DNA of 37,272 nucleotides from a virus (IMGVR_UViG_2917403263_000004:1-37272); one strand, 5' to 3'. Positions 975-33,791 are shown, counted from the stretch's first letter. Notes: a model not told the origin generated them from the letters alone. Made by a program: numbers and translations.

Positions 975-2672
975 TCAGGCGATAAGGTCGCCGTATTTTT
1001 CACGCAGACTCGTGGCCTGTTGGGCATCTGCGGCAAGTTCGCCGCTGTTCATCGGTGCGCCAGTGTTGCTGTGGGTGTGGTTTGCTGTATGTGTGGCCAG
1101 CAATTGAATCAGGTCCAGAATATCAGTCAGCAACGTCAGCAGGTTAAGCCCGGACTTTTCCCGCGAGCCGCTGCGACCAATAAACACTGTCGGGGCGGTA
1201 AACTCCAGACCGCCGTCCGCCCTGCATGTTCTGCGGCCTCCCACGTTTTCAGTCAGGTCGTGCTCAATCGTTGACGTTGCGCCTTTAAGTTTAGTCAGCA
1301 AATCCTGCGCCACCATCTGGATGTGTTCGCCGGCTGCGATCGCGTAATTGCCGGTAGTAAGGTGTTCTGTCTGGCCTGTCATCAGCTTGCTGGTACCAAG
1401 AACACTGGTTATGTCGTTTGCCTGGACTGTTGTTGTTCTGGTTGTTGTTGTGCGTTCTTCCTGGTCGCTGTTAATGGTTCGCCTGGCAGAATGCTCCCTG
1501 ATTTGCTGGTCGGTTTCCCTGTGCCAGCTTCCGTCAGTCGTGACACGCTGAAACACTTCTGCGCGCTGTTGCTGCAACTGTTCGCCGGGCTTTACATCAG
1601 GCAGGTTATGTCCGGCAGGTAAGATTTGCCTGATGACAGGTTTATCCGGGCGGCCTTCAATACTGGATATTTCCACGATGGTGCCTGCCGGTGGGTAGGC
1701 AAAACATCCCGCCTCGCTACCAGCCATCGGGACAGGGAGCGGTACTGCCGGGTAAACAGGCGTATCGCTTTTGTCGTTGCCGTTCTCATCAAGCAGCTGC
1801 ACGTCCACGGCGTAGCGTGGGCGGAAACTGTCGGCTACATCGCCCAGGGTGGCGGATTCCGTTGGTGCGACGACCCGCGCCAGTCTGGTGTGTAGTGTAC
1901 CGCTGGCCAGTTCCGGAAACTGCGTTTCCATCTGTCTGCGCAATGGTGATTTGGAAACAGGGCTACCCGTGGCGGTGAGGCGCTCCCATGTCAGTGTCAT
2001 TTTCTCGTTGTTGAGGGCTACACGGGTAATACGCCCGGCCGGAAGATTCACACCCGGCCGCACGGTTTCCATGAACATGATGTCGATGCTGTTTCCGCCG
2101 CTTTGCCCGAGTGTGTACTGTTGCGGAATATCGGGCATGGTAATGCTGGCAAACCGTGAATCAGCTGCGTTTCCCACAAATACAGAACCGTCCGGCATGG
2201 GGTGCCAGACGTAATCGCTGATACTGAATGAGCGCCCCAGCTGGCTGAGTAACTGCGTCCCGCTGCCGCTGTGGGTGATGTAGGGAGTTGGTGTGCTGAC
2301 ATAATCCGCATCTGGCGTGATAAAAACGATACCGCTTTGTCGCCCCAGATTATCGAGCACATCCCGCAACGTCGGGTGTTGCATGGAGCAGGGGAAATCA
2401 AAATCCAGCACAGCAGCTGCTTCACGGATAAAAAGGCGACGTGAGCCATTTTCGGCCGGTTGATCGCGTTCTATGTAGCCAGAGAAATAGCGCCAGGCCT
2501 CACCATTACGGCCGAGATCGATTTGCACCATTGCGCCGGCAAGGCTTTTTTCTGGTGACAGATTGTTAACAGAAACGAAGCCGCGACCGGCAGCATTCAG
2601 GGTGAGAGCAAGGCTGATATCGGCAATTTCCACCTGTTCGCCATTGATCATGCAGCGTTGTATCAATTTCAT
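975..2672 (-). CDS. Putative baseplate hub protein (gpD / Mu gp44-like N-terminus with long C-terminal extension)
   Basis: 565 aa, last gene of the tail operon. ATGA start/stop overlap with the upstream gene. The N-terminal pattern (VQIDLGRNGEAWRYFSGYIERDQ ... QHPTLRDVLDNLGRQSGIVF) resembles the gpD/late-control-D family, recalled from memory. Weak assignment. Confidence 0.45.
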   Translation of the reverse strand: MKLIQRCMINGEQVEIADISLALTLNAAGRGFVSVNNLSPEKSLAGAMVQIDLGRNGEAWRYFSGYIERDQPAENGSRRLFIREAAAVLDFDFPCSMQHPTLRDVLDNLGRQSGIVFITPDADYVSTPTPYITHSGSGTQLLSQLGRSFSISDYVWHPMPDGSVFVGNAADSRFASITMPDIPQQYTLGQSGGNSIDIMFMETVRPGVNLPAGRITRVALNNEKMTLTWERLTATGSPVSKSPLRRQMETQFPELASGTLHTRLARVVAPTESATLGDVADSFRPRYAVDVQLLDENGNDKSDTPVYPAVPLPVPMAGSEAGCFAYPPAGTIVEISSIEGRPDKPVIRQILPAGHNLPDVKPGEQLQQQRAEVFQRVTTDGSWHRETDQQIREHSARRTINSDQEERTTTTRTTTVQANDITSVLGTSKLMTGQTEHLTTGNYAIAAGEHIQMVAQDLLTKLKGATSTIEHDLTENVGGRRTCRADGGLEFTAPTVFIGRSGSREKSGLNLLTLLTDILDLIQLLATHTANHTHSNTGAPMNSGELAADAQQATSLREKYGDLIA

Positions 2673-30909: not shown

Positions 30910-31056
30910 TTACACGGCGTATAAACCGCGGCGGTGGCACCACACTTCAAACATTCGTTTCACAATTTCGCGGCAGTAGTAACCATCGGTATCTCTCGTC
31001 AGGTCGTAGCGGTTGCCGTAACGCTGACGCATCCATCGTTCAAAGGCTTTGTGCAT
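30910..31056 (-). CDS. Small ORF (48 aa)
   Basis: Manual translation MHKAFERWMRQRYGNRYDLTRDTDGYYCREIVKRMFEVWCHRRGLYAV. AAGGGA 8 nt upstream. Fills the gap between two flanking genes. Not in the track. Confidence 0.3.
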   Translation of the reverse strand: MHKAFERWMRQRYGNRYDLTRDTDGYYCREIVKRMFEVWCHRRGLYAV

Positions 31057-31067
31057 GTTCTGGTCCC

Positions 31068-31268
31068 TTACTGGTTAAGGAAAAAGTCAAAAACGTTATC
31101 AATGCGCATCATGAGTTCGCGCTGCATCGCTTCTGGTGTTTCCGGTTCGCCAGGCGACCCCAGCGTTGCGCAGAAATCAGCGATCTCGTGTTGAATGAGT
31201 TCTTTCAGCGTCGGTAAGGAATTCATGTGTGTGCGGCGATGCCTGCGTGTGATTCGCCTTCTGCTCAT
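31068..31268 (-). CDS. Hypothetical small protein (66 aa)
   Basis: ORF with ATGA overlap to the upstream gene. Arg-rich N-terminus. Confidence 0.4.
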   Translation of the reverse strand: MSRRRITRRHRRTHMNSLPTLKELIQHEIADFCATLGSPGEPETPEAMQRELMMRIDNVFDFFLNQ

Positions 31269-31468
31269 TTGCGCTGCTCCTGTACCTGTCGGATAAGGTT
31301 TACCCGCGCCACATTAGTGGCGCAGAAGTAAGTGCCGTCAGTGAGGTAGATGTGGTGTGCATCCTTTTCCGAGCGATGTTTGTCGATAGTGGTAATCAGG
31401 CGTTCATCGACCTCGTATTCGCGCCCTCTGGAGGTAAAGCGAACGACGGGAAAATGCTTAATTGCCAT
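31265..31468 (-). CDS. Hypothetical small protein (67 aa)
   Basis: ORF in the early operon array. Confidence 0.4.
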   Translation of the reverse strand: MAIKHFPVVRFTSRGREYEVDERLITTIDKHRSEKDAHHIYLTDGTYFCATNVARVNLIRQVQEQRK

Positions 31469-31492
31469 TGCGCCCCCTTTTGTCCAGTAACC

Positions 31493-31903
31493 CTATGCGT
31501 TAAATACGGCACGTTGCGCGTCATCAATGAATACAGCTTGAGAGCGTTCTATCAGGCGGAGATTTGTCAGAAGCTCTGATTCCCTTATGGGGTGAGGAGT
31601 GATCAGGTATTTATCCTGTAATTCGGCGATAATGGTGTATCGCTGTAGCTCCGAGCCAATTGTGTAAATAAGGCGTCCGATGTTCGATAAATCCAGCCCG
31701 GCGACTGGTTGTGCTTTGAGAACCGCCAGTTCAGCACCCTGTTTTGCGATAATTTCGGCTGCTTCTGCCGTTACTCTTGCGACTATCAATGTGTGGGTTG
31801 CGACGTCCATGTGAGCATTGGCCACGGCTTTTTTCGCTACTTCGTTTTCTGTCTTTGAAATTTCTTTCAGTGCTCTGATAATACCTTCTTCTTTTGCGTG
31901 CAT
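31493..31903 (-). CDS. Hypothetical early protein (136 aa)
   Basis: ORF with ACGGAG RBS. Predicted helical. No family assigned. Confidence 0.45.
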   Translation of the reverse strand: MHAKEEGIIRALKEISKTENEVAKKAVANAHMDVATHTLIVARVTAEAAEIIAKQGAELAVLKAQPVAGLDLSNIGRLIYTIGSELQRYTIIAELQDKYLITPHPIRESELLTNLRLIERSQAVFIDDAQRAVFNA

Positions 31904-31997
31904 TTTTGTATCTCCGTTATTTACTTGTGCGAATACCTCCGCGAATGCGGATGGTTTTTACGTTTTTCTTATTTAATCTGGTGTTTTGTTTGTGCTG

Positions 31998-32099
31998 TTA
32001 CTTCCCAGTGAAAAAACGCTCAATCTTTTTCACTGAATGAATAATTCGCATAATGCCGATTGCGCAAAGCACCGAAATAATCAGGACAAGCCAGGACAT
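31998..32099 (-). CDS. Small hydrophobic peptide (33 aa)
   Basis: Manual translation MSWLVLIISVLCAIGIMRIIHSVKKIERFFTGK: one transmembrane-like helix plus a basic tail. Starts 8 nt after the upstream gene stop. Weak RBS. Confidence 0.3.
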   Translation of the reverse strand: MSWLVLIISVLCAIGIMRIIHSVKKIERFFTGK

Positions 32100-32107
32100 A
32101 AATATAC

Positions 32108-32350
32108 TCATGCAATATTCCCCAGTTTATACGGTTCAATATGCTCTCCGCATTCTGCGGCGCAGATAAGCTCTGAAAGCTCATTGAGCGCATCCAGATC
32201 ATCAGCGTAAAAAGCCACGTCATACAGACTCCGGATTGCCCTGGTCAATGAGTCACGGGCTGCACGTTCAGCATGAGCGCCTGATGCACTTAAGCGAAAA
32301 TAAAAACGCTCAAGTGCTTTGTTAATGAGAGTTTTATATTCTTTGCCCAT
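32108..32350 (-). CDS. Hypothetical protein (80 aa)
   Basis: ORF in the early operon. Confidence 0.4.
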   Translation of the reverse strand: MGKEYKTLINKALERFYFRLSASGAHAERAARDSLTRAIRSLYDVAFYADDLDALNELSELICAAECGEHIEPYKLGNIA

Positions 32351-32361
32351 CGCAACGCCTT

Positions 32362-32640
32362 TTAATCTGCTTTCTGGGTTTCTGCTTTTGAATCCATGCA
32401 GATAATTTCGATGTATGGTTCATCGCTATTAATCTGACGTGCCTTTTCAGCTTCGCTAATGACTTCGCGTACAGTCTGGTACGGAAGCTCCACGAACAGT
32501 TGTGCGCCGCTGTCCAAATAAATATGAGTGGTTGCGTTTTTTGTCTGGGCCACACCATTAATAGCTGATGCACGCAATAACAGTTCACCGCGAGAATCAA
32601 TAAAGCGGATAAATACACCTTGAGTATGGTCTTTAGTCAT
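32362..32640 (-). CDS. Hypothetical protein (about 92 aa)
   Basis: Start set at internal ATG 32640, 8 nt after the upstream stop; the track ORF extends to 32700. Confidence 0.4.
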   Translation of the reverse strand: MTKDHTQGVFIRFIDSRGELLLRASAINGVAQTKNATTHIYLDSGAQLFVELPYQTVREVISEAEKARQINSDEPYIEIICMDSKAETQKAD

Positions 32641-32650
32641 AAAGCACCTG

Positions 32651-33001
32651 TTATAAATCAGCCTGTTTAATAAAACTCTGTCCACGCAGCAGACGATCAA
32701 CCGTGCGAAGCGCTTCGTATAATGTGAAATCCTGCCCGAACTGATTGTCGCCGCTGCTCAGAGCAAAAATGCGGTTTCCGGTAAACGGATTGCGCGGGCA
32801 TTTGTGGACCACGATTCCAGCCTTCTCAATCAGCCAGGTGTGCTCTCCGATTTGTTTTACAGCGTGGTCATCCGGTGTTGCGTGTGTTTCGCTCAGGCTG
32901 TAGCGAGAGCTGCTGCGTGATGCACTGGTGGCGAAACGGTTAGCGTGGCGTTCCGCCCCGTTGCGGAAGCGTTGCTGTGAAAAATTACGTCGTTGCTTCA
33001 T
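32651..33001 (-). CDS. Hypothetical protein (about 116 aa)
   Basis: Start set at ATG 33001 (AGGAT RBS); the track ORF extends to 33049. Confidence 0.4.
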   Translation of the reverse strand: MKQRRNFSQQRFRNGAERHANRFATSASRSSSRYSLSETHATPDDHAVKQIGEHTWLIEKAGIVVHKCPRNPFTGNRIFALSSGDNQFGQDFTLYEALRTVDRLLRGQSFIKQADL

Positions 33002-33143
33002 ACAAAAATATCCTGCTGCTGTTGTTAGTTTGTGCCGGGTTTTAGCCATGCCCGGCGCATGGTTTTGTGGTATTTTTCCACCGCCCGCAGTCTTGAAGGG
33101 GCTGTAAAGGGCGCGTGTTCAACCAACCACAAAGGAATAAAAT

Positions 33144-33326
33144 ATGTCCTATGATAAAAAGGTTATTGATGCGCTAAATGCGGCAATTTCTGTATTAGAG
33201 AAAGCGCCGGTTAATCCTCCTAATAAAGGAGAGCCATCAAATACCATTCGTAAGCTTATGCACGAAGTGCGTAAGCTCACGTTGGAAAAATATCCTCAGG
33301 CAAGTACATGGACTTTCCCTGAGTGA
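33144..33326 (+). CDS. Hypothetical small protein (60 aa), opposite strand to the surrounding early genes
   Basis: AAGGA RBS 8 nt upstream of the ATG. Ends exactly where the convergent 154-aa minus-strand gene ends. Confidence 0.3.
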   Translation: MSYDKKVIDALNAAISVLEKAPVNPPNKGEPSNTIRKLMHEVRKLTLEKYPQASTWTFPE

Positions 33327-33791
33327 TTATTTAACTCCCGTGCCGGAGATTTTCTCTGGCACATTTCCGACCTCAATAACCATGTTGTCACTGCTTAAAA
33401 TTTGTCGATAAAGCTCAAAGATTTCTTTGGCGGGGAAACGGAGCGCAACGCCGTATATTGGTTCTAAAATCATTCCAATCGTTTCTTTGACACCATCTCG
33501 ACAAAAATGACCGTATTCATCATCAGGATGCAGGGTAACATTTTTCAAATCTTCGCCATTCTGAAGCTTTGATTTAAATGCCATCAGGTCAGCGAACGTT
33601 CTGTGTAATTCGTGGTAGTCAATGCTGATTTCAACCTGTGGTTTGCCCGGAAAAACCAGCAAAAGCTTCTGGTGTGGCTTTTCGTTTTTCAGGGTTTCCA
33701 GTCGTTCCAGTAGTGCTTTGTCTTCGTAGTTTGTCATTTCAAAGCCCCAGCCACAGCAATCATGCGTCTCGCTATTCTTTCGGGCGAGCAA
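33327..33791 (-). CDS. Hypothetical early protein (154 aa)
   Basis: Second gene of the early operon. No motif recognised. Confidence 0.45.
   Translation of the reverse strand: MLARKNSETHDCCGWGFEMTNYEDKALLERLETLKNEKPHQKLLLVFPGKPQVEISIDYHELHRTFADLMAFKSKLQNGEDLKNVTLHPDDEYGHFCRDGVKETIGMILEPIYGVALRFPAKEIFELYRQILSSDNMVIEVGNVPEKISGTGVK

Follow-up and report, generated by a model that had tools for sequence, protein, structure and literature searches.

A conserved reading frame in the early region of P88-like Escherichia prophages probably encodes a 37-residue single-pass membrane peptide

The window, which is the whole stretch of viral DNA that was analysed here (IMGVR_UViG_2917403263_000004, 37,272 nucleotides), is by its sequence a P88-like Escherichia prophage of the genus Xuanwuvirus, Peduoviridae, in the P2 family. 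In this prophage, a gene of the DUF4754 family is directly followed by a small reading frame for a hydrophobic peptide, by an intercistronic segment with a short stem-loop, and by a gene of 136 codons. The features of this segment are as follows.

32108..32350, minus strand: DUF4754 gene, the upstream partner, 80 amino acids, a predicted two-helix hairpin (Pfam E=2.8e-54).
32119..32123, minus strand: SD-like GGGGA, located within the Leu-Gly-Asn codons of DUF4754.
32108..32111, minus strand: ATGA overlap, read from the sequence, of the DUF4754 stop codon TGA (32108..32110) with the ATG of the peptide gene (32109..32111).
31998..32111, minus strand: coding sequence of the 37-residue peptide MSIFMSWLVLIISVLCAIGIMRIIHSVKKIERFFTGK, stop codon included (list of reading frames, gene call of an assembly, orthologues, and pN/pS).
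32097..32099, minus strand: Met5, an internal codon formerly taken as the start (residue counts; no SD upstream).
32040..32105, minus strand: predicted transmembrane helix, residues 3-24, IFMSWLVLIISVLCAIGIMRII (hydropathy).
32001..32039, minus strand: predicted cytoplasmic basic amphipathic tail, residues 25-37 (hydrophobic moment and residue counts).
32026..32030: run of five A on the sense strand.
32011..32016, minus strand: run of six T on the sense strand, in codons 32-34, CGT TTT TTC.
31938..31951, minus strand: stem-loop UCCGC-AUUC-GCGGA, 5 base pairs, 46 nt after the stop codon of the peptide gene.
31926..31937, minus strand: GGTATTCGCACA box after the stem-loop, where similarity to many relatives ends.
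31493..31903: downstream gene, 136 amino acids, phrog_9338.

To compare this segment among relatives, 204 loci anchored on DUF4754 were collected from IMG/VR, GenBank phages, RefSeq and NCBI assemblies, with DUF4754 alleles down to 76% and 44% identity, and these loci were reduced to 139 distinct sequence contexts. The peptide gene lies directly after DUF4754 in every locus examined.

A previous reading of the window, made from the sequence only, had proposed a peptide of 33 residues. A minus-strand reading frame at 31998..32099 does give the peptide that was quoted, but its start had been misplaced. The frame opens four codons upstream of Met5, making a protein of 37 residues and not of 33. 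Among the 59 distinct protein variants, 44 have Ile at residue 5, 14 have Met and 1 has Leu; with Ile in the majority, the start must be the ATG within the ATGA overlap. This start overlap is kept in 203 of the 204 related loci (202 ATGA, 1 GTGA), and it persists where DUF4754 is only 76% identical, as in E. albertii, or 44% identical, as in the mosaic allele of locus L203. An SD-like GGGG(A) is found about 7-8 nt upstream of the ATG. At 10-12 nt before the ATG, DUF4754 has a Gly codon that reads GGG in 195 of the 204 loci and GGA in 2; GGT or GGC occurs in none of them, although the overall pS of DUF4754 is 0.34. Signals for translation, which the sequence-only reading had named as a check on its proposal, are therefore present in the form of the ATGA stop/start and the SD-like GGGG(A). 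By its sequence, the overlap can be described as a translational-coupling arrangement of DUF4754 and the peptide gene. A fusion of the two proteins by -1 slippage was considered and rejected, most alleles reading CTG GGG AAT, which is not slippery. The size of the reading frame carries no information by itself, being at chance level (70 reading frames of at least 20 amino acids in the 3.3 kb around the peptide gene), so the significance of this one comes from its conservation, its substitution pattern and its start context.

The gene order of the relatives places the peptide gene within a known type of operon. In the annotated relatives, the integrase and the C-type repressor are followed, on the opposite strand, by Cox, accessory genes, DUF4761 (and phrog_3800), DUF4754, the peptide, variable small genes, a 'derepression' protein and the replication gene A. 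According to the P2 record, the counterpart in P2 of the string of genes from Cox to gpA is the early operon with its start at Pe. The earlier assignment of the peptide gene to the early operon holds: it lies on the early-gene strand and, by gene order, between cox and gene A. A reading frame of 60 amino acids at 33144..33326, on the plus strand, is found inside the same string of early genes, between the cox-adjacent gene and DUF4761. It is a hypothetical protein in relatives and is also called in GCA_004745145.1, and it may interrupt the operon as a moron-like insert.

A 1.35-kb segment around the gene has 85-91% identity to P88-like phages and was matched in 1,364 of 5,426 complete E. coli genomes, including O145 and ST131 strains. 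The peptide gene occurs also in phages deposited as isolates, P88 among them. Contrary to the sequence-only reading, which had described it as unannotated, the gene has entries in public databases, where it is labelled a hypothetical protein or a membrane protein. The same 37-residue gene is called on PDID01000003.1 (GCA_004745145.1), in the gene order of the window, and the exact peptide is WP_135486405.1 / TLJ12370.1 from Escherichia sp. E3659. The orthologue in P88 is gp07 (YP_009113050.1, 'membrane protein') and that in vB_EcoM-569R5 is a 'putative membrane protein'; the orthologues in RefSeq E. coli genomes are labelled 'hypothetical protein' by PGAP, and the UniRef label is 'Prophage membrane protein'. 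P88 gp07, WP_135486405.1 and WP_147723340.1 are orthologues. P88 gp07 is 92% identical over 37 residues (tblastn) and shares the ATGA overlap with DUF4754 as well as the place in the early operon. The allele of the window differs from that of P88 in having M5, L15 and K37 and is found on only 2 contigs; past the mosaic joint that is described below, the downstream gene of the window also differs from that of P88.

The reading frame is maintained in nearly all relatives. The peptide has 37 residues and an ATG start in 123 of the 139 contexts and 37 residues with a GTG start in 1, while forms of 45, 41 and 30 residues occur in 9, 3 and 2 contexts, respectively. The gene is disrupted in one context, that of phage 503458. 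In the RefSeq record of this phage (NC_049341.1), DUF4754, the peptide gene and gene A are all frameshifted, gene A being split into two CDS, and frameshifts in several genes suggest homopolymer sequencing errors rather than biology; for the same reason, the phage was rejected as a distant relative. Conservation of the frame in related prophages had been the other check named in the sequence-only reading, and the start overlap and the first 29 codons are indeed in frame in 138 of the 139 distinct contexts.

Substitutions in codons 1-29 were counted by the method of Nei and Gojobori. The pN/pS of the peptide in its annotated frame is 0.26, compared with 0.21 for DUF4754 at the same loci. The two other sense frames and two of the antisense frames have values of 0.99-1.43, and the antisense frame with shared third codon positions has a value of 0.42. 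With each distinct variant counted once, the ratio of nonsynonymous to synonymous changes (N:S) in the peptide is 35:30 against an expectation of 76% nonsynonymous (p=7.9e-5, one-sided binomial), a crude count resting on few substitutions, the relatives being close (pS about 0.2). In the other sense frames, N:S is not significant. This pattern indicates that residues 1-34 are under purifying selection, at a level about equal to that of the DUF4754 neighbour. Per-position counts over the 59 distinct variants show that S6, W7, G19, I23, I24, K28 and I30 are invariant and that L10, I11, S13, A17, E31 and F34 are nearly so. The conserved positions hold also in the diverged 41-residue forms, for example MNILISWLILILAIICAVGTMRIINGIKTIESLFTGDKRHK.

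The antisense frame that shares third codon positions needs consideration, given that a reading frame of 38 amino acids at 32053..32169 on the plus strand overlaps the start of the peptide gene and the end of DUF4754. If this were the real frame, the sense frame would be its shadow. It has a significant N:S of its own (40:22, p=5e-3) beside the pN/pS of 0.42, and it is open in many relatives. This signal is weaker than that of the sense frame, as expected of a shadow frame. Moreover, most relatives have ATC, ATT or ATA in place of its start codon, its length can be 28, 38, 44 or 60 amino acids, it has no SD, and it enters DUF4754 in a frame that is altered by synonymous changes of DUF4754. Gene callers and curators annotate the sense gene. 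With neither its start nor its length conserved, we rejected the antisense frame as probably a shadow, and it is most improbable that the relation is the reverse. The sense frame is very probably a real gene that codes for a protein, a single-pass membrane peptide of 37 residues, in an Escherichia prophage of the P88-like, P2-family type.

The C-terminus of the peptide is its variable part. The 37-residue forms end in ...FFTG[EK], and the 41-residue forms end in ...LFTGEKRRK, reading through a codon that is TAA in the 37-residue lineage. The 45-residue forms (...ERFSLTNNSTNKTPD, ...RFSLTNNSTNKTPD) have five T instead of six at 32011..32016 and are frameshifted; they occur in several intergenic backgrounds and thus probably have more than one origin. 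The 30-residue forms, which end in ...SVKKD, result from one additional A within the A5 run at 32026..32030. The last 3-4 residues of the peptide vary, and from this comparison they appear to be dispensable or tunable. The recurrent frameshifts (45-residue forms in 9 and 30-residue forms in 2 of the 139 contexts) point to relaxed constraint on the C-terminus, and they could mean that the peptide gene is dispensable in prophages. The in-frame heptamer U_UUU_UUC, which spans the T6 run, was also considered as a site of programmed frameshifting. Such frameshifting was rejected because, in the majority allele, the -1 frame is open for only two codons and because the 45-residue forms are T5 alleles at the level of the DNA; no conserved alternative-frame product of this site was found in the relatives.

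The tolerance of the C-terminus for frameshifts and truncation would suit a segment that is translated for the sake of the RNA only. In such a case, the peptide would be functionless, a translated spacer or a decaying gene, and its translation would serve to keep the early mRNA occupied by ribosomes, so that Rho-dependent polarity is prevented or the ribosomes are placed before the stem-loop. The G-poor stretch and the conserved stem-loop that follow the gene also suggest functions of this segment at the level of the RNA. However, the amino-acid constraint (N:S of 35:30 and pN/pS of 0.26) is not expected of a pure spacer, and the hydrophobic helix and the invariant residues are kept even in the 41-residue forms. 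We consider this explanation improbable and continue with a peptide gene that is selected for its product.

The sequence-only reading had the peptide gene filling the gap between two early genes. It is indeed located between early genes of the same strand, but it leaves 94 nt (31904..31997) before the downstream gene, and this spacer contains the conserved stem-loop. The first 47 nt after the stop codon are rich in A and C and poor in G (28 A, 10 C, 5 T, 4 G). An element at 31926..31975 on the minus strand, composed of an A-rich run, the stem-loop and the GGTATTCGCACA box, is conserved between the cistrons. In 31 distinct sequences, 98.7% of the cells of the stem-loop are paired, and two of the pairs show double changes from CG to UA. 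Both one-sided changes give G-U pairs on the sense strand and A-C mismatches on the other strand, and wobbles that form on the sense strand only favour a stem-loop in the sense RNA. Rfam has no family in 31000..33500. The stem-loop could be a stabiliser or a processing site.

When read on the plus strand, the hairpin is followed by a run of T and resembles a terminator. Such sites are at chance level (2 found, 3.0 expected), and the only terminator-like site on the plus strand stops short of the peptide gene. A promoter-like TTGAAA-16-GATAAT (10/12) is found on the same strand inside the 5' end of the 136-codon gene (31855..31960). Together with the hairpin and T-run, it could make a short antisense RNA (about 70 nt) covering the SD and start of the 136-codon gene. 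Both types of site are at chance frequency, and the wobble pairs argue for the other strand. In P2, a putative rho-independent terminator is annotated in the early operon, after gene B (2481..2508 of locus L208); it is positionally reminiscent of the stem-loop at 31938..31951, and its sequence is unrelated. A counterpart of the peptide gene was looked for in P2 and not found, Orf78 not being hydrophobic and this intra-operon terminator being unrelated.

In IMG/VR, 119 stretches contain the motif together with its 3' flank, and the peptide gene is directly upstream in 118 of the 118 that are informative. Homology to P88 ends at query position 527, which corresponds to position 31926 of the window, and at least 6 alternative genes are found downstream of the GGTATTCGCACA box in different phages. 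The constant linkage and the end of homology at the box indicate that DUF4754, the peptide gene and the stem-loop form one unit that ends at a mosaic joint. DUF4754 itself can be mosaic, as in L203 (1501..1743), where its ends are conserved and its middle is replaced, with 44% identity overall; the peptide that overlaps this allele is 84% identical and the ATGA overlap is retained.

Database searches place the peptide in a narrow family. For the protein search, the peptide query was padded with XXX, and 65 clusters at 90% identity were recovered at E<=0.01, nearly all from E. coli. A profile search among 1.84 billion representative proteins gave 17 representative clusters, all of the same narrow family, and no distant relatives. 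By the names of the clusters, the family ranges over Escherichia, including E. albertii, Shigella and Salmonella. Pfam has no family for the peptide, DUF6007 (E=0.058) and PET117 (E=0.15) being below the cut-off, and neither does PHROGs, where the only match is phrog_5620 at E=0.42. NCBIfam and PADLOC gave 0 matches each. A sequence search of the PDB with the peptide gave one chance match, to a transmembrane segment. Membership in a holin or lysis system was looked for and not found; the gene is early, between cox and gene A, and has no Pfam holin match.

The partner protein is similarly restricted. The AlphaFold model of DUF4754 is a confident two-helix hairpin (pLDDT 88.8), for which Foldseek searches of the PDB and BFVD returned nothing below E=0.6 and no functional lead. 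In a set of 185,579 species-representative genomes, an alignment of DUF4754 gave matches in E. albertii and in a single contig with a Vagococcus label, and nowhere else. This 226-kb contig (NZ_JBQPOM010000071.1, Vagococcus sp. WN89Y) carries a DUF4754 that is 98% identical to an E. coli prophage gene, and its label looks like assembly contamination or mislabelling. Literature searches for DUF4754, for function in Xuanwuvirus and for the accession numbers found nothing.

The peptide can be described as composed of a hydrophobic helix and a basic tail. Both had been proposed in the sequence-only reading, and both are borne out. There is one hydrophobic helix, with a Kyte-Doolittle mean over 19 residues of up to 2.65 at residues 3-21, and the tail has R22, K28, K29, R32 and K37, for a net charge of +4 in the allele of the window. 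The hydrophobic moment of residues 22-35 is 0.72, which suggests that the tail is an amphipathic juxtamembrane helix. The N-terminus is uncharged. By the positive-inside rule, the uncharged N-terminus and the residues R22, K28, K29 and R32 after the helix predict an N-out/C-in orientation. The gene product is probably inserted into the inner membrane in this orientation and made during the early part of lytic growth.

A peptide of this design could damage the membrane. Like the type I toxins LdrD and Fst, TisB and Hok, it has fewer than 60 residues, one hydrophobic helix and a charged tail. Small size and a hydrophobic transmembrane helix are shared also with the type I toxins Ibs and ShoB. 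As a toxin of the 'kil' or type I kind, it would oligomerise and collapse the proton-motive force or arrest growth, leading to host shut-down in early lytic growth, and DUF4754 could be a co-made moderator. This fits its Ldr/Fst-type architecture, its location in an early operon under repression, where a toxic product would be tolerated, and its tight coupling to the partner gene. According to a review, small membrane toxins of the Ldr/Fst class occur also on mobile elements and prophages. In contrast to the type I toxins, the peptide matches no toxin family of Pfam or NCBIfam, and it is translationally coupled inside a phage operon. With its ATG on the preceding stop codon, the gene lacks an untranslated leader and a promoter of its own, and an independent promoter or long 5' UTR of the type I kind would not be possible. 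Rfam gives no small RNA and no gene for an antisense RNA was found. An antisense RNA antitoxin was considered and is not supported by the sequence, since antisense promoter-like sites are at chance level (4 found, 3.8 expected) and the wobble pairs of the stem-loop favour the sense strand. Furthermore, the conserved polar and small residues of the helix suggest a specific packing. A toxin that acts in this way is an unlikely explanation.

Exclusion of other phages is another function that had been suggested for such peptides. The peptide would then block superinfection or DNA injection, during infection or in the lysogen, like T4 Imm and Sp or HK97 gp15. It is a small predicted inner-membrane protein of a temperate phage, and its allelic diversity and plastic C-terminus would fit a gene in an arms race. 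T4 Imm, Sp, HK97 gp15 and the M Lys protein of a levivirus (37 amino acids) are small phage inner-membrane proteins that act on host membrane machinery, and the peptide has no homology to any of them. Prophage exclusion genes are usually expressed from the lysogen. The peptide gene, however, is located inside the cox-to-A operon and is not a moron with its own promoter, and by the Pe/C logic of the P2 record expression in the lysogen is not expected. Neither PADLOC nor PHROGs gives a match, and the sequence is conserved (pN/pS of 0.26) and not diversifying. We regard this function as less probable than toxicity. Lysis by a single peptide belongs to ssRNA and ssDNA phages, and the phage of the window has its own late lysis genes elsewhere.

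Overall, the best explanation is that of a selected peptide gene whose product would be an early accessory membrane effector, for which we would give a probability of roughly 0.55. How it would work is a tentative matter, and the following steps, taken jointly, are somewhat less than evenly probable. After infection or induction, the peptide gene would be transcribed as part of the early lytic operon, and ribosomes ending on DUF4754 would re-initiate at the overlapping ATG, such that both products are made together. The peptide would insert in the N-out/C-in orientation, with the help of YidC or spontaneously, as for the Pf3 coat protein, leaving the amphipathic basic segment of residues 22-34 on the cytoplasmic face of the inner membrane. 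It would then act through specific helix-helix or juxtamembrane contacts with a partner, which may be either DUF4754, translated alongside it, or an inner-membrane protein of the host. In this way it would be a non-structural accessory effector of the early host-takeover phase, like the modulators AcrZ, MgtS and Blr.

The conserved residues S6, S13, A17 and G19 of the helix, and K28/I30, E31 and F34 of the tail, suggest specific contacts, and damage of a non-specific kind fits them less well; the argument for a conserved helix face uses a shallow alignment. On account of these residues, of the regulatory hallmarks of type I toxins (own promoter, leader and antisense RNA) not being found at the locus and of the lack of a match to a toxin family, we weakly prefer a modulator with specific contacts over a pure membrane-damaging toxin. 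The modulators AcrZ, MgtS and Blr are single-pass proteins of 30-50 amino acids that bind larger inner-membrane proteins. The W-x-V-L-x-x-S-V stretch of the peptide weakly resembles Blr, at 16.5 bits, which is far below significance at the scale of the database. AcrZ, MgtS and Blr are chromosomal stress-response genes, whereas the peptide gene is an early gene of a phage. The Pf3 coat (44 amino acids, N-out/C-in, inserted by YidC) follows the same topology logic, with a short N-terminus that has no charge, a single helix, and a basic tail at the C-terminus that ends in aromatics. Its insertion was reportedly described by Kiefer and Kuhn in 1999 and is applied to the peptide by analogy. It is a structural virion protein of a filamentous phage and has no homology to the peptide, so the comparison concerns the mechanism of insertion only.

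A more speculative proposal, which we consider unlikely, is that DUF4754, the peptide gene and the stem-loop make up a cassette that is complete in itself and is passed on as a whole between P88-like phages. The cassette would be a two-part module for host takeover, or of a toxin and its moderator, with the peptide as the effector and DUF4754 as a chaperone, an antidote or a membrane-recruited factor. This proposal comes from the three parts being inseparable in every locus seen and from none of them resembling anything characterised.

The main results of this analysis are the correction of a gene start, a gene that is very probably real and is already catalogued, and a small conserved cassette at a mosaic joint. 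The product is probably an uncharacterised small phage-encoded single-pass membrane peptide, which is a known kind of protein. P88-type prophages are common in E. coli, and a conserved membrane peptide that is translationally coupled to its upstream gene is a cheap candidate for an activity in host takeover, toxicity or exclusion. If it has a specific target in the inner membrane, the peptide could serve as a probe or an inhibitor of that target.
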